Source: Firmicutes bacterium UBA4881 (GTDB lineage: Bacteria; Bacillota; DTU065). Taken from it: a stretch of DNA of 64,000 bases. The stretch spans positions 24,594 to 88,593 of the forward strand of contig DHDH01000001.1 in NCBI GenBank assembly GCA_002399235.1, read 5' to 3'. Below are positions 32,579-54,045 of the stretch, piece by piece. The translations under genes were made by a program, and so were the position numbers. The notes beneath the pieces are model-generated. The model was given only the letters and a program-made list of their open reading frames with translations, was not told the origin of the DNA and did no database searches. Within the stretch, counting starts at the first letter, position 1. The number at the start of each line of letters is the position of its first letter.

Positions 32579-33877
32579 ATGAGTTTTAGTGACTTGTTAA
32601 GGTTAAGTAGTAAACAGTTAAGAGCAAGAAAAATTGAGACGATGTTGATTGTTTTAGCTGTAGCCTTAAGTGTTCTAGTTTTAGCTGTAATTCTCTCCCC
32701 CCTTTATGTTAGTAGATTACCTGTAAAAGACATTAGAGATTTTATTGTGACAGTTAATCAAAGTGCATCTAATATTAACAATGAACTTTTAAATGGTTCC
32801 GGTTTTCCTTTAATTCGCTATGATATTCCCGATGATCCTAGTTCACATAGACTAACTATAGAAGAAGTTGAAGAGATCTTTCAAGCGATTCCAGAAAGTA
32901 AGTTTTATTTCTCAGGTAGTAGATCAGGTTCTAGAATAAGAGGTTATAATCAGTATCTTCCCTCATCCTTTTCCCAAAGTTCTAATATAGGATATCAGGG
33001 TGGTATGCTATCGCTTACGCCTTTAACCCCCGAGGCGATTTATGGGCTAGAACTTAAATTAGCATCTGGTTCGCTCTATACAAAAGAAGATTATCTAAAT
33101 AACAAACCTTATATCATTCTCGGCTCAGATTTAGCTAAAAGTTTATTTCCAAGCGAAAATCCCATTGGCAAAACCGTTGAAACTATATCTGTGAACTCTC
33201 CTACCTTTACGGTTTTAGGAGTATTAGAACCAGTTTCTTTTGACTCGGATGATAAAAAATATAGTGCTGTCAACAATCTTCTTAAAGACATTAATCAAAT
33301 GGCTATTAGTAGCTATACAAGTGTGATTCCTCCTGAACAAGGACCAACTTATAGTGTTGTATTATTCTACCCTAAAACCCCCTCTCTAAAATTACAAAAT
33401 CAGATTGCATCTTATCTTAAAAAACACTATAAAGGCTTCTTTAATGCTTCTTGTCCCTATGCTTTGTATAGTTCAGCGATGAAGAATTGGCAAAAATCTT
33501 ACCTTGTTCTAGGCATAATCGCTACTTTAATTCTACTCATTGCTTGTATAAATATTATGAATTTGTTTTTTGTTCGTATTGCCAAACAAAATAGAAGCAT
33601 TGGTCTGAATGTGGCTCTTGGTGCAACTAAAAAGACCATATTTTCTCAATACCTAGTTACTGCAATCATACAAGGTCTACTTGGTGGTTTTCTAGGTGTT
33701 TTAATTTTTTGGTGTATCTCTAAAACTGGCCTTAGGCAAACTTTCCATCTTGTTTTCAATATTCAAGCAATCCTTTGGGGTATTGCTTCTGGTATTTTTA
33801 TGAGCTTAGTTTTCGGTATCTATCCAGCAGTAGTAGCAGCGAGTACAAGTCCTGTTGATGCTCTCCGAATGGAATAA
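32579..33877 (+). CDS. ABC transporter permease, MacB-like periplasmic domain plus FtsX domain
   Basis: Paralog of 15021..16295. C-terminus ..AASTSPVDALRME. Confidence 0.75.
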   Translation: MSFSDLLRLSSKQLRARKIETMLIVLAVALSVLVLAVILSPLYVSRLPVKDIRDFIVTVNQSASNINNELLNGSGFPLIRYDIPDDPSSHRLTIEEVEEIFQAIPESKFYFSGSRSGSRIRGYNQYLPSSFSQSSNIGYQGGMLSLTPLTPEAIYGLELKLASGSLYTKEDYLNNKPYIILGSDLAKSLFPSENPIGKTVETISVNSPTFTVLGVLEPVSFDSDDKKYSAVNNLLKDINQMAISSYTSVIPPEQGPTYSVVLFYPKTPSLKLQNQIASYLKKHYKGFFNASCPYALYSSAMKNWQKSYLVLGIIATLILLIACINIMNLFFVRIAKQNRSIGLNVALGATKKTIFSQYLVTAIIQGLLGGFLGVLIFWCISKTGLRQTFHLVFNIQAILWGIASGIFMSLVFGIYPAVVAASTSPVDALRME

Positions 33878-33896
33878 ACTTAGGAGGTGTATATCA

Positions 33897-35147
33897 GTGT
33901 CGATTTTTCGCAAAGGACTATACCTGTTTAAGAAAGATTCCGTAAGAACTATTCTCACAGTTAGTCAATTTGCCTTGGGAATAGCGGTAGCTTTAATTGT
34001 AGTAAATATAAGCGTAAGCTTAAGTAGATTTACTTTAGAAGCACAGACCTATTTTAACCCTGATTTTGGTATCTACACCGCCTCGTCAAATACAAGTTTA
34101 CTTGGTCCTATTACTAATAGTTATGGTCGTCCACTACCTCCACCGCAATTTGCTGACCAAATTAGCCTTGATTCTAGTGTAATAGCAGCAACTAATTTGC
34201 TTCGAGACAACAAAAAAATTACTGCTAACGGTATTAGCTATATCACAATAACTCACCAGGGTATCTCTACTTTACCTGAAGTAATCCCCATAAAATTTCT
34301 GCATGGGTCGTATTTTTCCGAAGATGAAGAGAATAACCAGGTTGCAGTTATCTCTGAGTCATTAGCTCGAGCTCTTTTTGGCCAAACCAATGTAATTGGT
34401 AAAAAAATAATGACCGAGAAATACACCTACACTCCATTTTATAGTTCCATGAAATATCCTCAAACAGAATACACAATAGTAGGAGTCTACCAAGATTTTC
34501 CCTTTATAGCTAGACAGGTTTTAGATAAGATTAACTTTATTCATACCAAAGCGGAAGATAATACTATTATCCAAAGTGCTGGGACAATTTACCTTAAAGC
34601 ACAGAAAGATAGATTAGTTGAGGCTGAAAAAGTATTAGAAAAGTTAGCTAAAGATTACTACGGTGAAGAGGCTAAGATCCAGCCAATTAATATCAAAGAG
34701 AAAATATCTTATAGTCTGGCTAGAGGCTTATCGTTAAAGAACCACTTTAACCTTATTGCTATTTTTGCTGTAATTGTGAGCTCTATTGGTATCCTTAGTG
34801 TGATGGTTGCTTTTGTAGCTGATAGAGCTAAAGAAATCGGTGTAAAGCGAGCTTTAGGAGCTAGCAAAGCGACTATCTTTCTGGAGATAATAATGAATAC
34901 ATTATACTTAACATCTTTTGGTGCTATAATTGGCATTTTGATTGCTTTACTCACCTCGCCAATTTTATATGCAGAGTTAACAGATTCTATATCGCAATTA
35001 CAGACCTTTAGTAGTACTGATTTTGCTCTCTTACCAAGTTCAATTCTTATAGTATTCTTAGCAGCCTGTCTAATAGGCGTTGTCTTTGGTATCTATCCTG
35101 CATTGCTGGCAGCGAATCTTCCTCCATCAGAAGCTTTACGGGAATGA
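33897..35147 (+). CDS. ABC transporter permease, MacB-like periplasmic domain plus FtsX domain
   Basis: GTG start 33897, 8 nt after AGGAGGTG, immediately following the previous stop. Paralog of 13775..15004. C-terminus ..AANLPPSEALRE. Confidence 0.7.
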   Translation: MSIFRKGLYLFKKDSVRTILTVSQFALGIAVALIVVNISVSLSRFTLEAQTYFNPDFGIYTASSNTSLLGPITNSYGRPLPPPQFADQISLDSSVIAATNLLRDNKKITANGISYITITHQGISTLPEVIPIKFLHGSYFSEDEENNQVAVISESLARALFGQTNVIGKKIMTEKYTYTPFYSSMKYPQTEYTIVGVYQDFPFIARQVLDKINFIHTKAEDNTIIQSAGTIYLKAQKDRLVEAEKVLEKLAKDYYGEEAKIQPINIKEKISYSLARGLSLKNHFNLIAIFAVIVSSIGILSVMVAFVADRAKEIGVKRALGASKATIFLEIIMNTLYLTSFGAIIGILIALLTSPILYAELTDSISQLQTFSSTDFALLPSSILIVFLAACLIGVVFGIYPALLAANLPPSEALRE

Positions 35148-35161
35148 GGGGTGAAGGTAAA

Positions 35162-36460
35162 TTGGATAAATACCAACCGATTATTAGGGAAAAACCGAAA
35201 AACCCGAGAAAAAGCCAGCAAACAAAGCTAATCCTGTTTATTCTTCTAGGTATCACGGTTTTAATAACGGTACCTATCTACTTGTTTCTACCTCAAAATC
35301 AAACTTATAAGCTTTACGATTATACTTACTCCACTGTTAAGACTAGGACTTTCCGCGAATATATAACTGTAGCTGGCCAGATTAACGCTCGTAAAGTAGT
35401 TAACCTTACTGCTCCATTTAAAGGTTGGCTAGAAGAGATCTATGTTAAAACTGGTGATTTGGTAGCTGAAGGTGATTTACTATTTAGGTTAGTTTCAGAT
35501 GACCTAGATAAAGAACTGGTAGAGGTAACCGAAAATCTAGCTAAAGCAACTAATGACTTGGAAAGATCTAAATTAGATCTCATGATCGAAACCCAAAGAT
35601 TTGCTAAAGATGCCAGGGAGCGCAATAACCAAATTAATCAGCTTGAATCTACATTGAAAGAAAAAGAAGCGCTTTTTGAACTAGGAGCCCTTAGTAAAAA
35701 AGAGTTAAATAATGCTATTGAAGCTTTTGAATCAGCAAAACTTGATCAAAGTATTAAACAATTGACTTCGGAAAAAACTCTTCTAGCTGCTAAAATGTCC
35801 TTAACAAATTCAGAAAAACAGTATCGCCTGGCTCAAGAAAAACTTGCTGAAATTAATCTCCTAATTAGTAATAAAGAAATTAAAAGTCCGATCGCAGGGA
35901 AGATATTAGAAACTACCGATCTAAAAGATTCTGAGGTTAATACAAGTAATATTCTCGCGAAGATTGCCACTATTAATAATCCTTATGTACAAATCTTCAT
36001 CCCTACTACAGAAAGCGAAAAGATAATAAATGGTTTACCTGTAACCATTAAAACAACAACCTCTAATTACAAAGGATATGTAGATAAAGTTGCTCTCAAT
36101 ATCCAAAACCATACAACCTTAGGTCCTACTGTTGTCGGGACTGTACTTTTTAAGGAAAACCCAGAATTTATCATTCCTGGTACCGAATGTAAAGTGGAGA
36201 TAGAACTAGGTAGTAGAGATAGTGTTTTGTATCTTCCCCGTGGTCCTTATATAAGTACAGGATCTAGTATGAATGCTTACACCATTAAAGATAATAAAGC
36301 AAACAAAACTCCAGTACGTTTAGGTGTTTTCGATGGTAGTGATGTAGAAATTATCGAAGGGTTAGAGGCTGGAGACGTTGTTATTACAAGTTCATATGAG
36401 GACTTTATCGAGTTTTACCAAATAGAGATAGATCCAAGAGGAGGGCGTAAAAATGATTAA
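35162..36460 (+). CDS. HlyD/MacA-family periplasmic adaptor
   Basis: TTG start after GAGGGGTGAAGG. The N-terminus DKYQPIIREKPKNPRKS aligns with KDKPIIINKPRPKKS of the operon-1 paralog. Coiled coil plus β-barrel domains. Confidence 0.7.
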   Translation: MDKYQPIIREKPKNPRKSQQTKLILFILLGITVLITVPIYLFLPQNQTYKLYDYTYSTVKTRTFREYITVAGQINARKVVNLTAPFKGWLEEIYVKTGDLVAEGDLLFRLVSDDLDKELVEVTENLAKATNDLERSKLDLMIETQRFAKDARERNNQINQLESTLKEKEALFELGALSKKELNNAIEAFESAKLDQSIKQLTSEKTLLAAKMSLTNSEKQYRLAQEKLAEINLLISNKEIKSPIAGKILETTDLKDSEVNTSNILAKIATINNPYVQIFIPTTESEKIINGLPVTIKTTTSNYKGYVDKVALNIQNHTTLGPTVVGTVLFKENPEFIIPGTECKVEIELGSRDSVLYLPRGPYISTGSSMNAYTIKDNKANKTPVRLGVFDGSDVEIIEGLEAGDVVITSSYEDFIEFYQIEIDPRGGRKND

Positions 36461-37178
36461 GTTAGACAACATTGTCAAGCTATATTCATTAGGCGATAAT
36501 ATTATTCGAGCTTTAGACGGAGTCACTCTATCTATTGAACGTGAAGATTTTATCTCCATAATGGGCCCATCTGGTTCTGGAAAGTCTACGTTGTTACACA
36601 TTTTAGGTTGTTTAGATCTACCCACAAGTGGTGCTTATTATCTAGAAGATGTAGATATATCCCACCTAAGTGATAAAGAAATATCGCGAATTCGCAATCA
36701 GCATTTTGGTTTTATTTTCCAAGCTTATAATTTGCTTCCAGAGTTAAACGCTTTAGAGAATGTTGAACTACCGATGATCTACAAAAAGATATCCCTTAAA
36801 GAGCGGAAAGAAATTGCTAAATCATTATTAGACAAAGTTGGTCTAGCACATCGCATAAAGCACTTCCCCTCACAATTATCAGGTGGAGAGCAACAAAGGG
36901 TAGCTATAGCTCGTGCACTTGCTAATAATCCTACTTTGATTCTTGCCGATGAACCTACTGGTAATTTGCCTAGCGAACATGGTGAAGAGATTATGGAAAT
37001 GCTGTGTCAGTTAAACGAAGAAAGCTCTACGATAATAGTTGTCACTCACGACCATAAAATCGGTTCTTATGCTAAAAAACTAATTCGATTAAAAGACGGT
37101 TTAATCGTCTATGAAAACGAGATAACAGAACGTTTTTCAGCTGAATATGTCTCGAAAATTGCTGCTTCCACAGTGTAG
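36453..37178 (+). CDS. ABC transporter ATP-binding protein (MacB/LolD-type)
   Basis: [37 protein letters not shown]. Its ATGATTAA start overlaps the HlyD stop, the same junction as in operon 1. Confidence 0.85.
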
Positions 37179-37188
37179 GAGGATGAAA

Positions 37189-38208
37189 ATGAGACATTTA
37201 GCTGTAATTATAAGTATCCTAGTGTTAAGTTTAAGCATGTCAGCAGAACTCCTTTCTTTAGATACGCTTATCGATGCAGCTGTTAAAATTTCGCCTAATA
37301 TTTTAAGTGCTGAGCTTACAATTGAAGATGCCGAGATCGAATTAAAACGTGCACTCTATAAAGAAACCACTCTACCTCCTAATACAATAAACGAAAAGAA
37401 AAAAGCTATTGAAAATGCCTGGTTTAACCTAGAAAAAACCAAAAAATTAGTTAATAAAGAGACTAGTAATATTGCTTTATCAGTTCTAAAAGCTCAACAT
37501 GGTCTAAGACAAAAAGAGATCTCCTTTTTAGAGGCTAAACGAGATCTAGAAATTGCAGTTGTAAAGTTTGATAGAGGAAGTATCTCCTTAAACGATCTGA
37601 TAGGTTTCGAAGATAAGTACACTTCTAGTAGTGATGCAAAAGAGCAAAGCAAAGAAACTTTAAAACTTGCTAAAGAAAAACTATGTCAACAGGTTGGTTT
37701 AGACTTTGACACAGAAATTGAAGTGGATTCTAAATTAGAGCCTCTGATCTTGAATATCTCTTTAGACGAGTTAATAGAAGCCAATAAGCGGTATGATTCT
37801 TCTTATCTTTCGGTAGTTAACTCTGTAAGTTTACGCGAAAGCGAACTAAAACAAATGCTCGAAGATAAAGAAGCTAATCTTACTATCCGCCAAAAAGAAA
37901 TTAGCCTAGAAAAAGCTAAGATTGATCTAAAAGCTAAAGAAAGTACGATTATCTCTAACTCCCGAACAACCTTATCGGCATATAACTCCCAGTTAAAAAA
38001 TCTAGAAAAGGCTGAAACTGAAGTTACAAAGGCTAAAAAACGTTTAAATGAAGCTTATAAGCAATACGAAGATGGTTTAATTACTTTAAATGACCTAGAA
38101 GACCGCCAATACCAAGAAGAGATAGCTTTAATGAAGCTTGTAGAAGCTAAATGGGACCTTCATTTAGCTAGTCTTTCGCTACAGATGGTTTTTGAAGGCG
38201 GTGATTGA
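37189..38208 (+). CDS. TolC-like outer-membrane efflux protein
   Basis: ATG 37189, 6 nt after TAGGAGG. Signal peptide MRHLAVIISILVLSLSMSA. Coiled-coil-rich. Confidence 0.6.
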   Translation: MRHLAVIISILVLSLSMSAELLSLDTLIDAAVKISPNILSAELTIEDAEIELKRALYKETTLPPNTINEKKKAIENAWFNLEKTKKLVNKETSNIALSVLKAQHGLRQKEISFLEAKRDLEIAVVKFDRGSISLNDLIGFEDKYTSSSDAKEQSKETLKLAKEKLCQQVGLDFDTEIEVDSKLEPLILNISLDELIEANKRYDSSYLSVVNSVSLRESELKQMLEDKEANLTIRQKEISLEKAKIDLKAKESTIISNSRTTLSAYNSQLKNLEKAETEVTKAKKRLNEAYKQYEDGLITLNDLEDRQYQEEIALMKLVEAKWDLHLASLSLQMVFEGGD

Positions 38209-39407
38209 TTATGCCTAGAAAACTTATTTTCTTCATTTTACTCTTACTTTTAACTAATTCATCGATAGCTCTCACTTTAGATGAAGCTTTTGAATTAGCT
38301 AAAAATGGTCCCGAGGGTATCGCTTTGCAAGCTGTGGTAAAGACTGATATCAGTTATTCTTTAGAATTAAACTCAAAGATTTCTTCAGATAATCTCTTAA
38401 CTTCGACAGAAATTAAAGGACTTGCGCAAATAAAATCTCTCAATTTATCTGGTACAGTAGACCTAAAAAACAAAAATGCTAATGCTCGTTTTAACCTACC
38501 TTTAGAGCTAATAAATTATAAGGCACTGTATAAACCTGACACTGACTTGTTATTAAGCCTTAGAAGTCGGGTAACTAATCTCTTCTTTAATATTCTAGAG
38601 AGTGATAACCAATTAGAGGCTAAACTATTAGCTTTAGAAATAGCGAAAGAAGAATACGAAAGAAGTAATCTTTACTTTGCCAGAGGTACTATCTCTTTTA
38701 AAGCCCTTTCTCAATCTTTAGAGGAAAAACAAAGAGCAGAAAATCAATTACAACAATTCATCAATACTTATAAAGATAACCAAAATGAACTAGCTTATCT
38801 CCTGGACTTAGTAGGAGTGCAGCCTCTTACCGATGACTATTCGCTAACTTTTAAACTTTTAGATGATCTGCCCTTAACCGAAAAAGAACAATCTGAACTC
38901 GATTACCCTATACTTGCAGCACAGCTTGAACTCGAACAGTTAAAGAAGCTACATTTCCCGCAACTAAGCCTAGAGGGAACTGGAAGTATAGGGCAAACAA
39001 ATAAATATTATGTAGGTCTATCCCTAAGATACCTTGTTTTGAGTAGTAATCAGAATGCTTTAAAAAGGAACGCTCAAGCAAAGCTAGAAAATGCTAAACT
39101 CGAACGAAATAAAAAAGAAAGAAACTTAATAAAAGAGAAAAACCGCCTGAAAAACGACTATAACAATGAGGTCTTAGCTTTAGAAGCCGCTAAACTCAGA
39201 TTAAAAGAAAATGAAGAATTTTATGAGTTAGCAAGCAAAGCGTATCAGGATGGTCTAATTTCGGATCTCGATCAAAAAAGAGCTTATTTAACTCTGTTGC
39301 AAGCTAGGGCTAATTACAAGTCTACCTACCACAAGTGTTTTAAACTGAAGCTAGCAATAGAAGGGGTTACCCTCTACCAGCAGGGTAATCTGGCAATAAC
39401 TATCTAA
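38205..39407 (+). CDS. TolC-like outer-membrane efflux protein
   Basis: Signal peptide MPRKLIFFILLLLLTNSSIA. Coiled-coil repeats. Overlaps the previous gene by 4 bp. Confidence 0.6.
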   Translation: MIMPRKLIFFILLLLLTNSSIALTLDEAFELAKNGPEGIALQAVVKTDISYSLELNSKISSDNLLTSTEIKGLAQIKSLNLSGTVDLKNKNANARFNLPLELINYKALYKPDTDLLLSLRSRVTNLFFNILESDNQLEAKLLALEIAKEEYERSNLYFARGTISFKALSQSLEEKQRAENQLQQFINTYKDNQNELAYLLDLVGVQPLTDDYSLTFKLLDDLPLTEKEQSELDYPILAAQLELEQLKKLHFPQLSLEGTGSIGQTNKYYVGLSLRYLVLSSNQNALKRNAQAKLENAKLERNKKERNLIKEKNRLKNDYNNEVLALEAAKLRLKENEEFYELASKAYQDGLISDLDQKRAYLTLLQARANYKSTYHKCFKLKLAIEGVTLYQQGNLAITI

Positions 39408-45650: not shown

Positions 45651-45767
45651 AAAAATTAAGACCTTCTACCTAAAGGTTAATTAAAATAATCTTTGGTAGG
45701 AGGTTTTTCTTTTAAAACCACTAACATAATGTTAGATTTTATACAAATTAATAATGGAGGTGCAGAA

Positions 45768-48524
45768 ATGCACTTAAAAAAGAAAAGGATCTGGTTAATT
45801 CTAACCATCTTGCTCCTAGTGCTCAAGGGTGAGGCTTTTCCTTTAACAAAAGAGGAGAAGATTGCAGATTGGCAATTTTATTGCCAGACAATACTTGCGA
45901 ATTACCCTTATTTTGAGGTTAATGCTCGCGTGACAGGACGAGATTGGCGAGATAGTTTACAAGAACTTAAAAAAAGAGTCCTAGAGAGTGAAGATGATCT
46001 TAGTTTTTATGAGGCTATTCAGTATGCTACAGCAACCCTGCAAAACGGTCATACTCACATTATTCGGCCGGAAAGCTATGCTAATTATGCTAGTTCTTAC
46101 GCTGGTGTTAAACGCTGGGAAGACGCTTTCACAGCTGAGGTCAAAACAGCTTATGACTATTGGCAAGAGGTTGTAAATGGTAACAATGAATTTTACGCTT
46201 TTGATATTCGCTATGTTGCCGGAAGCTATATAGTTACTCGTGTAGGTGAAGAGATAAAGGATTTACCAATAGCAGCGGAAGTTTTAGCTATAGGTGGTCA
46301 GAATGTTGATGACTATGTCTTAGAGAAGGTAAAAACTACACAGATTCTCCTAGATCCAATTAAGGGCAAGCGATATGTAAATAATCTTTCTTTGCCTGAG
46401 GGTGCAATCAAACTAACAATTAAAAAGGATAACAAAATTCAAGATGTTGTGGTAGAAACAATAACCAACATAGAACCAGTAGCAAATTATACAAGGCCAG
46501 CTACAACAACTGATATATTAGAATCAGATAAGATTGCCTATGTGAAAATTCCTTCATTAAGCGGATCTTTAATAGACAACGATAAGGAAATGTTACTTTC
46601 TTTTTTTCAAGAGATCAAAGACTATCCTTATTTAATTATTGATATTAGGGGTAATGGTGGGGGCTCCGATTATTACTGGATGAATAATATCATGGCGCCT
46701 TTAATAGATGAACCAGTTGTTGTTCAAACCTACACGGCTCATCGTAAAGCTCCTTTTATTCGTTCTTTCTACAATGCCCGCCTTGGTTTAGCTAATAATA
46801 TTTTTAGACGTTCCAAAGCAGTTTTAGAAAGCTTACCGAATTTACCTTCTGAGGTCCTTACTAATGATTTTGCTGATCCCATGGAATTTAAATATACGAT
46901 AAAACCGAAAAACAGTGTAGGCTATCAGGGACAAATCATTTTGTTAGTAGATGGAGGAGTTTATTCAGCAGCGGAAACCTTTGCTATGGTAGCTAAACAT
47001 TCTGGTTTTGCTTATCTTGTGGGCACGAGAACAGGTGGTGATGGGCCTGGTATCGATCCTGTGTTTTTTTCCTTGCCCCATAGTAAATTAGTGATTCGCA
47101 TGGCAGAAAGTATAGGCCTAAACCCAAATGGTGCTGCTAATGAAGAAGAACACACCTTACCTCACCTTTGGGTTGCTCCTGAACCAGAGTATTACATTGC
47201 CTCACTTACGTCACAGAATGGTTATGATAGAGATAGACAATTAAAAACCGTTCTAGAGCTAATTGCTACAGATAATTTAATAGCAAATAAGATAGCAGCC
47301 AATAAAGAACAGGTGCCTTCTATAATGGAGCATCTTTTCAGTGGGGTTAATAGTAGTACAGATCAGGAACTTAGTCAATTCCAGGGTAAAACCATCTCGG
47401 AGGTACGCATTTACGGAGCTTATGCGACTAATTATGCTAAGCTAGAGAAACTAATTGATCTAAAACCAGGGGAAACGGTAAAAGTAAAAAAATTACGTAT
47501 GTTAGAAGATAGATTAAATGCCACAGGTGCTTATGCCCAAGCAGCCATTAATTTAAGCGAAGAAAGTAAAGGGGAAGTAATTGTTAAGATTCAGGTAAAG
47601 GAAGGTTTTCTTTTCTTTCTTACGCCTTATGATGCCTTCACGACTGTTATGTCTGATATTACTAGTAAGAGTCTTACGGGCAAGATTTATAATATAAATG
47701 GTGGTTTGCATAACTTTTCTATTACAGCCTCTATTCCTAATGAGCGACTAGAACTTAGTTGGGAAACACCTCTTATTTTCACTAATACCTATCAAACTAG
47801 TGTAGCTGTAGGTAGCTTGAAATATGGTAATCTAGTAACTACAGGATCAGAAAAAGGAAGAGGTTATCTTTTAAGAGACAATTATTTGCGTGCTGATATT
47901 TCTTTAGGAGTAGCACCTGCTACGAGAATTTATTTGCAGACAGCTTATTTTCAGGATACTTACCTTGAGACAGACACCCTCTCGCCTCATGGCCTGAAAA
48001 ATGGTGATTACTATGAAGTTGCTTTAGGGATCAACCAAACAATAAGAAACTTTTATACACTCCAAACTATACATCAATTAAATTCTTCTTTAACACTGGT
48101 TGGAGCAGGGAAGGAACTAGGGTATCGGCTAAGCACTGGCCTGCGTTCATATTTCCAAGTCGGGGATAAACTTAGGTTTACAATTAAACTAAATACTGGT
48201 TTAGCTGAAACAGTTCCTTATCAAAGACTGTACCAGATCAGTAGCAACTCCTTACCAGCCTACACTGGCATTACTATGCAAAAATTTGTCTTAGCAGGGC
48301 TAGAGAATACTATTTATCCAATAAAAGATATCTCTCTCGTTATTGGTTTATCAGGATTATATGGTAAAGAAGGGTTAGACGCTAGTATTAATAATGCTTA
48401 TCTTTCTTTATACGGAGCTCTACGGTATAGGTTGCCGTTTGGTTTACCGCTAGGTGTAGTTTATGGCTATGATCCTTTAAGCGGTGTTAGCAGAATTAAC
48501 TTTGGTATTAGTAATGAATTTTAA
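45768..48524 (+). CDS. S41-family peptidase fused to a POTRA domain and a C-terminal outer-membrane β-barrel
   Basis: ATG 45768 after AATGGAGGTG. Signal peptide. S41 motifs IIDIRGNGGG and GGVYSAAETFA. POTRA-like segment (ISEVRIYGAYATNYAKLEKLIDLKPGETVKV..). About 300 aa of alternating β pattern ending ..RINFGISNEF with a terminal Phe. Confidence 0.6.
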   Translation: MHLKKKRIWLILTILLLVLKGEAFPLTKEEKIADWQFYCQTILANYPYFEVNARVTGRDWRDSLQELKKRVLESEDDLSFYEAIQYATATLQNGHTHIIRPESYANYASSYAGVKRWEDAFTAEVKTAYDYWQEVVNGNNEFYAFDIRYVAGSYIVTRVGEEIKDLPIAAEVLAIGGQNVDDYVLEKVKTTQILLDPIKGKRYVNNLSLPEGAIKLTIKKDNKIQDVVVETITNIEPVANYTRPATTTDILESDKIAYVKIPSLSGSLIDNDKEMLLSFFQEIKDYPYLIIDIRGNGGGSDYYWMNNIMAPLIDEPVVVQTYTAHRKAPFIRSFYNARLGLANNIFRRSKAVLESLPNLPSEVLTNDFADPMEFKYTIKPKNSVGYQGQIILLVDGGVYSAAETFAMVAKHSGFAYLVGTRTGGDGPGIDPVFFSLPHSKLVIRMAESIGLNPNGAANEEEHTLPHLWVAPEPEYYIASLTSQNGYDRDRQLKTVLELIATDNLIANKIAANKEQVPSIMEHLFSGVNSSTDQELSQFQGKTISEVRIYGAYATNYAKLEKLIDLKPGETVKVKKLRMLEDRLNATGAYAQAAINLSEESKGEVIVKIQVKEGFLFFLTPYDAFTTVMSDITSKSLTGKIYNINGGLHNFSITASIPNERLELSWETPLIFTNTYQTSVAVGSLKYGNLVTTGSEKGRGYLLRDNYLRADISLGVAPATRIYLQTAYFQDTYLETDTLSPHGLKNGDYYEVALGINQTIRNFYTLQTIHQLNSSLTLVGAGKELGYRLSTGLRSYFQVGDKLRFTIKLNTGLAETVPYQRLYQISSNSLPAYTGITMQKFVLAGLENTIYPIKDISLVIGLSGLYGKEGLDASINNAYLSLYGALRYRLPFGLPLGVVYGYDPLSGVSRINFGISNEF

Positions 48525-50211: not shown

Positions 50212-50736
50212 ATGTTCTTTCGAGATTATTTTTGCTTAGATAGGCTTTTAGGTTTTCCATTCGAAGTCACTGCTATCTACACCGAAAAAGGTATAGTTTA
50301 TGTTGGTGTTAACGAGTTTAAGCCTCCAAAATTTATTACTTCCACACCTAAGTTGATCAATCTTAGTCACCTAATATTACGTCAGCAATTGGAAGAATAT
50401 TTTCGTGGTAAAAGGAAAATATTTGATCTCCAACTTGATTTAAGAACAACAGATTATCGCCGTAAAGTATATAACGCACTTCTAGCTATTCCTTATGGAG
50501 AGGTACGTACTTATAAACAAGTTGCTTGTAGTTTAGGTGTGCCAAATGGCCAAAGAGCAGTAGGTCAAGCTTTAAAAGCTAATCCATTACCAATAATTAT
50601 CCCTTGTCATCGTGTGGTAGCCGAAAGTGGGCTAGGTGGATTTAGCTTAGGGACAGAACTCAAAGAGGCACTTCTAGATCTAGAAAAAAGCTCTCTAAGA
50701 CCAAAGGACAATAAAGAGGTAGCTTTAGCAGAATAA
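50212..50736 (+). CDS. ogt: methylated-DNA--protein-cysteine methyltransferase
   Basis: Active-site PCHRVV motif (IIIPCHRVVAESG) and the DNA-binding helix-turn-helix region (YGEVRTYKQVA). RBS GGAGGTAAG. Confidence 0.85.
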   Translation: MFFRDYFCLDRLLGFPFEVTAIYTEKGIVYVGVNEFKPPKFITSTPKLINLSHLILRQQLEEYFRGKRKIFDLQLDLRTTDYRRKVYNALLAIPYGEVRTYKQVACSLGVPNGQRAVGQALKANPLPIIIPCHRVVAESGLGGFSLGTELKEALLDLEKSSLRPKDNKEVALAE

Positions 50737-50818
50737 ATTGCGCTTTGGAGTTCAATTAACATGAATCTTACAGGTAATTGACTTAGGGTTTTAAATATGA
50801 TAATCTTAGAGAAAGTTT

Positions 50819-50871
50819 TAGTTTAGCTTAGATAAGCTTAGATTAGAGGAGCTGAGTTTAGTTGAGTAGAG
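50819..50871 (+). promoter_or_regulatory. array of 11 (G/U)AG triplets at 2-nt spacing: candidate TRAP (MtrB) binding site over the RBS and start codon
   Basis: TAG-tt-TAG-ct-TAG-ataagct-TAG-at-TAG-ag-GAG-ct-GAG-tt-TAG-tt-GAG-ta-GAG. It covers the SD (AGAGGAG, 50845-50851) and the TTG start (50862). Confidence 0.55.
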
Positions 50872-51407
50872 AAAAAAATTTAACAAGAGATCTAACTTTA
50901 GCAGGTTTAATGGTGGCAGTTGGGTTTGTATTACATGGTTTTTTCCCAGCTATTGTAGCAGGAATGAAACCAGACTTTTCCTTGATAATGTTAATTTTAT
51001 TTGCTTTATTAAGAAGAGATCGTAAGATAACCATTGCTGCAGGGGTAGCTACAGCTATTATTACAGCACTGACAACAACCTTCCCAGGCGGACAGCTACC
51101 AAATATAATTGATAAATTACTAACTACAGCTGTTGTATTAGGGCTCACAATGTTTGCTGAAGGTTATTATAATGCTATCATTACCGGGATTATAGGTACA
51201 ATTGTAAGTGGTGTTACCTTCTTAACATCAGCTTTACTAATTTCTGGTTTACCAGCACCATACAAGGTTTTATTTTTCTCAGTTGTTTTACCGGCAACAG
51301 CTCTTAATACCGTAGCCATTGCGGTTCTTTACCCTGTTGTAGTTAAACTAAACCAGATGATAAAACCTAGAACCGCTACAGCATCTAGAACTACTAAAGT
51401 TGCATAA
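50862..51407 (+). CDS. trpP: TrpP-like tryptophan transporter / ECF-type S-component membrane protein
   Basis: 181 aa with five to six TM helices. Its size and hydropathy match the TrpP (YhaG) family. TTG start after AGAGGAG. The call is supported by the upstream TRAP-type triplet array. Confidence 0.5.
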   Translation: MSREKNLTRDLTLAGLMVAVGFVLHGFFPAIVAGMKPDFSLIMLILFALLRRDRKITIAAGVATAIITALTTTFPGGQLPNIIDKLLTTAVVLGLTMFAEGYYNAIITGIIGTIVSGVTFLTSALLISGLPAPYKVLFFSVVLPATALNTVAIAVLYPVVVKLNQMIKPRTATASRTTKVA

Positions 51408-51543
51408 AGTTTGTAATTATAGCTGTTGACTATGTCAACAGCTTTTTTAGATCCATCTATTTCTGGTTTACCAGATCAGTTCAGTTTTATGTACATGGAA
51501 AGTGGGTGTGATTATTCACACCCACTTTATTATTAGGAAGTAA

Positions 51544-52590
51544 TTATTTTAGTTTGTTTATGAGGTTTTTGAGAAACAACAGATAATCATCTTCGGGTCC
51601 TTTATCAGCTTCCTTGAGGGAAGTTGCGAGAGTTTTAATCTGTTTAGTTTCTTTTTCTAGTTCGACAAGAACCTCTTCCAAGCCTTTATTTAGTTGCTCT
51701 TTCTCATCGGGGGTGAGTTTGTCAACAACAATATCGTGATGTAAGACCTGCAATGAGCAAGCACACTTTATTCTTAGATAGAGAAGCTTTTCAGCATCAT
51801 CTAATTTGAATTCTGCAAGTAGTGTTTCGACTAGTTCCAAAGCAGAGGCACAGTCATTATCTTCTAAAGCTTTGAGAGCTACAATTTTCAGAAAGTCTGC
51901 TACAAAGGTTTCTTTTTCGGGGTTATCACCTAAATTGCGTAATCTAGAGATAGCTAATGGTAGTTTACCAGCTGAGAGAGCAAGATTTACTCCGAAATCT
52001 TCTAACTCTTCGTAAAGAATAGCCCCTTTAACCCAAAGTTGTTCTGCTATGTCGAAATCTTTATGCATTACCAGGTGGGAAAGTAGTTGAAGCATTACTT
52101 TAGGTTCTGCACTTTCGAAGCGAGCTTCTATATCCTGACAAACAATCTCATGAGCAGCCCAATTAGTTCTTAAATGTTCATAGATAGCTAAGCGATCATA
52201 CCAAGCAAGAGCCTCATTTAGTTTTTCTTGCCAGAAAGTAAAAGGAATTTCTCTCTCTCCTAGAGCTTCGAAGGTGAGCATGAGGTTATAGGTGGTATAA
52301 GGATCTTTGGGAGCGGATTCAGCTATTTCTTTGGCTTTTTTAAAGTCACCTTGAAAAAAGGCACTCAGAGCTTGGCAGTGAGGAATGTCTACTAGGGGGT
52401 CACCCTTAGCTAGAGAATCAAAGAGACCCTCTGGTACGGTTTCCGAATAATTTTGGGGAAGGAGATAAGGCATCTCTAAAGCCCAAACAGCTCTTTCTAC
52501 AGGATTAGCAAGCTCTTCAACGAAATCTAAGGCCTCTGAAGGAGAAGTCTTGGCTAGCATTCTTTGCCAAAAAGGATTGTCATTTCTCAT
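51544..52590 (-). CDS. hypothetical all-helical (TPR-like) protein
   Basis: No catalytic motifs. Helical repeats. Overlaps the tyrS stop by 4 bp. Confidence 0.5.
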
Positions 52591-53792
52591 TTTTTTAACC
52601 TCGCAAATTTACGTTTACCGACCTGAAGGACCATACCATCATCGATGGTAACTTCTAGATTACCATCTTCTACTTTGTTATTATTTAGTTTGACACCGCC
52701 TTGTTCGATCATTCGGCGAGCCTCAGAGTTTGATTTAACTAGTTCACAATCTACCATAAGTTTGACGATCCAGACTTTTTCTTCGTTAATGGTAAACTCA
52801 GGAATATCTTCTGGTAAACCACCTGAACTGAATACTTTCTCAAATTCATCTCGAGCTTTGATCGCTGCTTCTTCTCCGTGGTATTGGCTAACAATCTGCA
52901 TACCAAGTCTGCTTTTGACAGCTTTAGGATGTAGAGAACCATCATTAAGGCAGGCTTTGATCTTATCTATTTCAGTTTTGTCCATGTTAGTTACAAGTTC
53001 AAAGTAGGTTATCATCATTTCATCAGCTAAAGACATGACCTTACCATACATAGTATTAGGATCTTCTGTGATACCAATGTAGTTACCTAAGCTTTTACTC
53101 ATCTTATTAACTCCATCGAGGCCAACTAAAAGAGGTAAACACATAACAATTTGAGGCTCTTGACCAGCATCTCTTTGCAAGTCACGGCCTAATAAGATAT
53201 TGAAGACTTGATCTGTGCCACCAAGTTCAACGTCAGCTTTAATCTCCACAGAGTCAGTAGCTTGCATGAGAGGGTAGATAAACTCTAAAATACTGATAGG
53301 TTGATTAGTAGAGTATCTTTTTGCAAAGTCATCTCTTTCAAGCATACGAGCCACAGTAATCTTGGAAGCCATGTCTGCTAAATCAGAAAAGGACATTTTG
53401 CTAAACCAGGCGCCATTAAAAGCTACTGTGGTTTGTTCTGGTTTAAGAATTTTAAAGACCTGCTCTTGATAGGTTTTAGCATTGGCTAAGACCTGCTCGT
53501 GAGTAAGACGAGGTCTAGTAGCTGATTTGCCAGAAGGATCGCCAATCATAGCGGTGTAATCACCAATAATTAATGTTACATTATGGCCTAGATCTTGAAA
53601 CTGTCTCAATTTTTGTAGGGGAACAGTGTGACCTAAATGGATATCAGAGCTAGTAGGGTCTACACCTAGTTTAACATTAAGGGGACGATTCTCTGCGATA
53701 GATTTTTCAAGTTTTTTAAGTAATTCATCTGCTGATACTACTTGGGCTACTCCTCGTAAGAGTACCTTAAGTTGTTCTTGAGCTGAAATCAT
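52587..53792 (-). CDS. tyrS: tyrosyl-tRNA synthetase
   Basis: HIGH-type motif ([10 protein letters not shown]), KMSKS (NKMSKSLGN), and a C-terminal S4-like domain. RBS AGGAGGTG. Preceded by a Tyr T-box leader. Confidence 0.9.
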
Positions 53793-53808: not shown

Positions 53809-54045
53809 AAAATAAAAAAAAGAAACCGTCCCCCAGAAAGGGACGGTTAATACCGCGGTACCACCCTAGTTGCCCCCTAAGGGGCCACTTGATCCTTATA
53901 ACGGTAGGGAACCGAAGAAGGCTACTGAAAGTTCACCATCTTAGCTCTAGGGTGTACTTCATCTGAATTCTAGCTACCAGTTTACACCGACCACTGGCTC
54001 TCTAAAAGTCGAAGACAGACTACTCTCCCTGTCATTGCTTTATTC
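53809..54045 (-). promoter_or_regulatory. T-box riboswitch leader (Tyr specifier UAC) with terminator/antiterminator
   Basis: Minus-strand reading: sigma-A-like promoter TTGACG-17-TAGAAT; stem I with AGAGAG; specifier loop ..GAAGUACACCC (UAC followed by A); conserved T-box AACUAGGGUGGUACCGCGG (plus 53853-53871); terminator ACCGUCCC-loop-GGGACGGU followed by a U-run (plus 53809-53847). Confidence 0.85.

Follow-up and report, generated by a model that had tools for sequence, protein, structure and literature searches.

A run of 11 phased NAG triplets, covering the leader and first codons of a monocistronic tryptophan-transporter gene (trpP) in the 64 kb window (the whole stretch of DNA analysed here), is very probably a translational operator of the TRAP type. 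[quoted passage not shown] At the sequence level, the locus has every feature by which a TRAP translational operator is recognised; it is an ordinary, well-preserved instance of a known control device, and leaves the known mechanism unchanged. What is gained is the confident annotation of one gene of a digester bacterium, a tryptophan importer predicted to be shut off when tryptophan is plentiful.

A phased triplet array over the ribosome-binding site of trpP

A scan of every (G/T)AG located the array at 50819-50871 on the forward strand, with a period of 5 nt and all ten spacers exactly 2 nt long (Table 1). The first-pass annotation had described eleven (G/U)AG triplets here; the position and the eleven phased NAG triplets hold, but only ten of them are TAG or GAG, the remaining one being AAG. 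In TRAP sites generally, NAG is repeated 9-11 times and the spacers between the repeats are not conserved (PMC4347634). From that source we took a minimum of nine NAG triplets, preferably (G/U)AG, on the mRNA strand as the mark of a TRAP site, a number that the array exceeds. Its spacers are short as well, with the classical length of 2 nt to which Babitzke et al. 1995 refer in their title. An additional in-phase GAG lies upstream of the array, and in a relative whose TrpP is 95% identical (L007) a 12-triplet chain takes in the equivalent position.

Such a run is far outside what the window's composition would produce. In the rest of the window, on both strands, the highest count of (G/T)AG over 11 phased positions is five. 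With the window's triplet frequency of 0.0385, the binomial expectation for sites with at least 10 of 11 positions occupied is about 1e-8 over the whole window. When the AG-rich 81 nt around the array were shuffled 20,000 times with dinucleotide content preserved, no shuffle exceeded seven triplets.

Both elements needed for translation initiation lie inside the array, as the first-pass annotation had stated: the AGAGGAG Shine-Dalgarno sequence, whose GGAG stands 10 nt from the start codon, and the TTG start itself, so that the site covers the two together. The same TTG is used by gene callers on six public contigs, and in two related loci (L230 and L232) an ATG aligns with it and leads into identical codons, AGT AGA GAA AAA.

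Table 1. Coordinates of features at the window's trpP locus, with identifiers of the loci and proteins discussed in the text
Feature	Position or identifier	Strand	Remark
Probable promoter	-35 TTGACT, 50778-50783; -10 GATAAT, 50799-50804	+	15-nt spacer; read from the sequence
Additional GAG	50809-50811	+	In phase; possible 12th triplet if transcribed; 7-nt gap before the array
TAG triplets of the array	50819, 50824, 50829, 50839, 50844, 50859	+	In phase
GAG triplets of the array	50849, 50854, 50864, 50869	+	In phase
AAG triplet of the array	50834	+	In phase; the sole triplet that is not (G/U)AG
Out-of-phase (G/T)AG	GAG 50846, TAG 50867	+	Overlap the array
Shine-Dalgarno sequence, AGAGGAG	50845-50851	+	Overlaps triplets 50844 and 50849
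TTG start of trpP	50862-50864	+	Overlapped or flanked by triplets 50859 and 50864
trpP, 181-aa multi-pass membrane protein	50862-51407	+	PF17099 match
Intrinsic terminator-like hairpin and T run	51421-51450 (hairpin 51421-51443)	+	3' of trpP
Bipartite Halanaerobium leaders	L250, L252, L269, L270, L272, L285, L294, L297, L298, L300
Array-less trpP with T-box	L249, L260, L265, L274, L281, L288, L292, L296, L306
Candidate TRAPs looked up	P0386, P0474, P0504, P0272, P0475, P0471, P0533, P0528, P0459		All from other organisms
ORFs directly 3' of mtrB, examples	L314:6270-6473, L327:3253-3453, L310:2911-3108, L087:6383-6592, L097:6259-6459
Long, weakly TRAP-like proteins	P0307, P0334, P0344-P0347, P0349, P0356, P0359, P0362

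The trpP gene and its predicted transcript

The first-pass annotation had called the downstream protein TrpP-like and had asked for a profile search. That search bears the assignment out: the product matches the Pfam TrpP family PF17099, a family resembling ECF S-components, with a score of 150.8 bits (E = 4e-44; the cutoff is 27.2), and the match is nearly full length, pairing residues 8-162 with profile positions 2-166 of 169. Hydrophobic stretches run along the entire protein. It has 938 homologues, the named ones being 'tryptophan transporter', and some of them match PF12822 too; the NCBIfam models gave no match. The array therefore stands before a gene of tryptophan transport, TrpP, as a TRAP operator would. 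No ECF energising module (EcfA/A'/T) was seen among the part of the window's ORFs that was scanned. In B. subtilis, trpP has been deleted together with ribU, thiT and panU (PMC11487621).

A probable promoter precedes the array. Its -10 element lies within TATGATAATCT and can also be read as a TGn extended -10; it matches the consensus moderately and is absent from a consensus scan, whose rule was a spacer of 16-18 nt. Related leaders carry TGnTATAAT-like elements at an equal distance upstream of their arrays. From a promoter ending at 50804, transcription would begin near 50811, giving a leader of about 50 nt that is nearly all array. The terminator-like hairpin that follows trpP from 51421, together with an upstream, ogt-like gene that ends at 50736, indicates that trpP is monocistronic.

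The leader RNA shows no excess of structure, its minimum free energy of -15.9 kcal/mol being close to the shuffle mean of -15.3 (z = -0.25), and the array would thus lie in a single-stranded region free of a stable competing fold, as is expected of a TRAP site. No terminator lies between the array and the trpP start, and Rfam has no match at the leader; on these three grounds a riboswitch or attenuator at this leader is not supported. No T-box (RF00230) precedes the window's trpP. The only T-box of the window, a full-length leader (158 bits) at 53836-54044 on the reverse strand, lies upstream of the tyrosyl-tRNA synthetase gene tyrS (52587-53792, reverse strand).

Conservation of the array in orthologous leaders

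The first-pass annotation had made conservation of the triplet spacing in orthologous leaders a test of its reading. We compared 80 metagenomic and 80 named-genome loci, whose TrpP relatives are 42-95% identical, and scored chains of (G/T)AG triplets with 2-3 nt spacers and one skip permitted. The highest-scoring chain of the locus lies in the interval from -50 to +25 relative to the trpP start in about 55 of the 80 metagenomic loci, with 5-12 triplets at trpP versus 2-3 on the opposite strand, and most of the 80 named-genome loci likewise have their best chain in this interval. Among the named genomes, the chains hold 8-10 triplets in the four closest relatives, 9 in Limnochordia, 8 in a Natronincola MAG, 7 in Halothermothrix, 6 in Ca. 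Frackibacter, 4-6 in Peptococcaceae, and 5 plus an upstream block in Halanaerobium species. The Bacillaceae, the expected positives, have 8 (Geobacillus thermodenitrificans), 6 (Cytobacillus) and 7 (Bacillus infantis). In Halobacteroides halobius DSM 5150, a phased series TAG-AAG-GAG-GAG-GAG-GAG-AAG-GAG lies over the Shine-Dalgarno sequence and the start codon.

The leaders of the window and of three relatives (L007, L230 and L232; TrpP 66-95% identical) can be aligned without gaps. Across these four, the AG of the triplets is invariant in 22 of 22 columns and the first base is only ever T, G or A; of the 20 spacer columns, 11 are invariant. Where the window has AAG, L007 has GAG, and both L230 and L232 have TAG. 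The array is thus conserved in orthologous leaders, and the test set by the first-pass annotation came out in its favour. A protein that recognises regularly spaced NAG triplets in RNA would be expected to impose this pattern, which is not that of a DNA operator or a recent duplication.

The regularity of the array could nevertheless have its origin in the DNA, either as a tandem-repeat operator bound by a repressor just past the promoter, or as a microsatellite-like duplication that is neutral. TRF detects a weak array of period 5 at the trpP leader and, inside the array at 50825-50843, a perfect 10-nt tandem duplication of AGCTTAGATA in 1.9 copies; in addition, the array begins about 15 nt after the putative -10 element. 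Part of the regularity in the window's leader could indeed come from this local duplication. Over the 207 loci examined (2.17 Mb, both strands), however, all 65 chains of at least six triplets lie at the trpP start on the sense strand, with none elsewhere, and they are tied to the Shine-Dalgarno sequence and start codon rather than to the promoter. In many orthologues the arrays extend well into the trpP coding region. Only the NAG and its phase are conserved while the spacers vary, unlike an operator half-site or a recent duplication, and no dyad symmetry of note was found at the leader. We consider an explanation at the DNA level extremely unlikely, and the RNA operator remains our reading of the array.

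Two observations concern the architecture of these leaders. The AGCTTAGATA duplication hints that arrays can grow through local duplication of two-triplet units. Halanaerobium leaders are bipartite (Table 1), with a first block of 3-5 triplets and a second of 4-5 over the Shine-Dalgarno sequence and start codon, set apart by about 12-15 nt of A-rich sequence.

On this comparison, trpP appears to carry a very strongly conserved and highly specific TRAP site in many lineages other than Bacillus, with arrayed trpP genes in genomes labelled Halanaerobium, Halothermothrix, Limnochordia and Peptococcaceae as well as in DTU065-like biogas MAGs. Leaders of trpP offer a handy marker for mapping TRAP regulons, and the many natural sites could help to relate the number and spacing of triplets to the size of the ring.

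Arrays alternate with tryptophan T-boxes

Orthologues of trpP that lack an array occur in Clostridium sensu stricto, Peptostreptococcaceae, Eubacterium yurii and some Halanaerobiales. Nine of the ten such loci tested have a T-box leader (RF00230) before trpP, and the tenth has only 300 nt of upstream sequence. In the two T-box alignments that were inspected, the specifier loop reads GAA-UGG-A, specifying Trp. Even genomes labelled Halanaerobiales show the alternation of arrays with T-boxes at trpP. Whichever of the two it carries, array or Trp T-box, trpP would be controlled in response to tryptophan, and the alternation supports both the substrate assigned to TrpP and a part for the arrays in sensing tryptophan. 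The T-box leaders resemble the window's locus in the gene family controlled and in the signal, tryptophan supply, but differ in that a structured RNA senses uncharged tRNA-Trp and acts on transcription; the window's trpP has no such element.

The same alternation bears on another reading of the AG-rich leader, as a translation enhancer or ribosome standby site built from Shine-Dalgarno-like GAGG/GGAG, or as a CsrA-type site. The leader is purine-rich and has a strong Shine-Dalgarno sequence, as this would suggest. Neither device, however, needs a strict 5-nt period, an invariant AG or a first base drawn from U, G and A; the leader contains a single GGA, against a CsrA site; and alternation with Trp T-boxes points to control that responds to tryptophan. 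There is, in our estimate, scarcely any chance that an enhancer or CsrA-type site accounts for the array, and a TRAP operator fits these observations.

The predicted TRAP of the window's genome, and TRAP elsewhere

A TRAP operator at trpP predicts that TRAP (MtrB) is encoded in the window's genome, and we infer that it is. Neither a single TRAP sequence nor a set of about 80 representatives of the family, used as tblastn queries, matched an mtrB in the 64 kb window, and in about 170 trpP loci no mtrB was present in the 10 kb around the gene. Nine candidate TRAPs looked up for the window's genome all belong to other organisms (Table 1).

These results could be taken to mean that the lineage has no mtrB and that some other factor reads the array, an unrelated tryptophan-responsive RNA-binding protein that converged on the TRAP recognition code; the effect on translation would be equal and the sensor would be new. 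The mtrB search, however, reached only the window and exact-sequence look-ups, and its outcome is not evidence of absence. NAG triplets, 2-nt spacers, 9-12 repeats and an invariant AG are exactly the features of TRAP sites. The same arrays occur in Bacillaceae, where TRAP has been characterised, and in one MAG outside the Bacillaceae (GCA_050951405.1) that encodes both a TRAP (P0471, on JBMNIZ010000014.1) and an arrayed trpP (L258, on JBMNIZ010000016.1). TRAP is, moreover, very widespread in Bacillota. We regard a convergent reader as very unlikely, and TRAP as the protein to be expected at this site.

The TRAP family (PF02081) is small and highly conserved; it falls into 127 clusters when grouped at 50% identity and into over 6,600 at 90%. 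Bacillaceae took up the matches listed in a first homology search, and a profile of low-GC TRAPs from outside the Bacillaceae gave at least 120 further matches. The family is star-like, its consensus being equally close to Bacillaceae and to other members, and amino-acid composition did not discriminate as a marker of low-GC TRAPs. By the names given in the sources, TRAP outside the Bacillaceae occurs in Thermosyntropha and Syntrophomonas (Syntrophomonadaceae), Carboxydothermus, Desulfitibacter and Paenibacillus, and in many MAGs labelled 'Clostridia' and 'Bacillota'. P0471 and other TRAPs from outside the Bacillaceae keep the HTEKLD and KIRG motifs, which we take to hold the residues (Glu, Lys, Asp and Lys/Arg) through which the B. 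subtilis and G. stearothermophilus proteins contact RNA. Among the Bacillaceae, the TRAP P0122 is named by its source for G. thermodenitrificans NG80-2, and the trpP locus compared here (L268) is from a different strain.

The first-pass annotation had called TRAP regulation little described in this lineage. As a statement on the literature this stands: no published description of a TRAP operator in the window's uncultured lineage was found in the literature searched, and nothing relevant was found there on TRAP in Halanaerobiales and related taxa. As a biological surprise it does not, TRAP being not rare outside Bacillus.

Outside the Bacillaceae, mtrB has a recurrent neighbourhood: dnaE, at times a nucleotidyltransferase gene or recQ, mtrB, a small ORF, accD/accA or pfkA, and pyk (TRAP loci from other organisms inspected: L087-L097, L220-L229 and L310-L328). 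This dnaE-mtrB-pyk type of arrangement was found in all eight lineages looked up besides that of P0386, in which ytrI/ytrH take the place of dnaE beside mtrB. The recurrence predicts where mtrB should lie in the window's genome, most probably in the interval from dnaE to pfkA/pyk.

The small ORF directly 3' of mtrB is conserved in seven lineages and encodes 65-69 aa (examples in Table 1). Its matches to DUF2007 (PF09413) range from weak to significant, and it has an invariant MW.VV start and the motifs ..EG.L..LR and ..E.LV..SE. It contains no cysteines and so is not a homologue of the zinc-ribbon anti-TRAP protein. The product could be a partner of TRAP, or the gene a mere syntenic neighbour; the window contains no homologue.

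Two MtrB homologues carry labels outside the Bacillota, a 'candidate division WOR-3 bacterium' MAG (P0285) and a 'Desulfobacteria bacterium' MAG (P0539), which could reflect horizontal transfer or a binning error. An exhaustive search with representatives also returned long proteins of 440-2268 aa that contain 2-7 weakly TRAP-like stretches (Table 1).

Proposed mechanism and related operators

In the mechanism that we propose, the trpP mRNA would start about 8 nt upstream of the array, so that the 11 NAG triplets take up nearly the whole leader together with the first three codons. With tryptophan in ample supply, a TRAP ring of 11 or 12 MtrB subunits, loaded with the amino acid, would hold the array around its rim, one triplet per subunit. 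[quoted passage not shown] When tryptophan is scarce, TRAP would be released and the transporter translated. Both the binding of TRAP to this RNA and its dependence on tryptophan are predicted from the features of the leader. TRAP rings of 11 or 12 subunits are known (PMC11725872); the 11 triplets would fit the former, and the latter would be served if the GAG at 50809 is transcribed. Since the leader has no antiterminator or terminator structures, control would be translational only.

The operator of B. subtilis trpP (yhaG) shares with that of the window the TrpP family, the (G/U)AG triplets over the Shine-Dalgarno and initiation region, and the absence of a terminator/antiterminator, its repression being a block of ribosome binding. 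The B. subtilis site has nine triplets at less regular spacing, whereas the window's array is fuller, with 11 phased triplets, spacers that are all 2 nt, and mostly UAG. The window's operator also differs in belonging to an uncultured, probably diderm member of the Bacillota, in which the binding of TRAP is a prediction. The B. subtilis trpP operator is attributed to Sarsero et al. 2000 and Yakhnin et al. 2004, as they are cited in PMC4347634 and PMC1635260. Bound over the Shine-Dalgarno sequence and start codon, B. subtilis TRAP blocks ribosome binding at trpG, trpP and ycbK, and it represses trpP up to 900-fold (PMC1635260).

The same direct occlusion at the Shine-Dalgarno sequence and start codon is described for the sites of B. 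subtilis trpG (pabA) and ycbK (PMC1635260), but the target genes differ, and the trpG site lies at an internal gene of the folate operon. The B. subtilis trpEDCFBA leader also has 11 triplets, but there they form part of an attenuator that switches between an antiterminator and a terminator; passages in PMC3064811 and PMC4027176 describe its eleven (G/U)AG repeats as wrapped by the 11-mer ring.

Host genome

The exact TrpP protein is encoded by two MAG assemblies that carry no annotation (GCA_002397445.1 and GCA_036827085.1), and it recurs in several metagenome assemblies from ENA and Logan. In a scan of species-representative genomes with TrpP, the best match was 67% identical and the window's species was not among the matches. 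The closest named TrpP relatives, at 62-67% identity, are in 'Bacillota bacterium' biogas MAGs and 'Clostridia bacterium DTU065', followed by genomes labelled Limnochordia, Halanaerobiales, Peptococcaceae, Clostridium and Bacillaceae. Contig and isolate names suggest that most of the related contigs derive from metagenomes of fermentation, bioreactor and biogas origin. The G+C content of the window is 37%.

Two stretches of the window, 32579-39407 and 45693-48524 (both on the forward strand), carry outer-membrane hallmark genes. The window encodes a MacB/FtsX-HlyD-ABC efflux set followed by two TolC-like OEP genes, and a 943-aa protein with an S41 peptidase domain and a POTRA domain. The TolC-like OEP, MacB/HlyD and POTRA genes suggest a diderm Firmicute, and the host is probably a diderm member of the Bacillota represented by an uncultured MAG from digester-type metagenomes.
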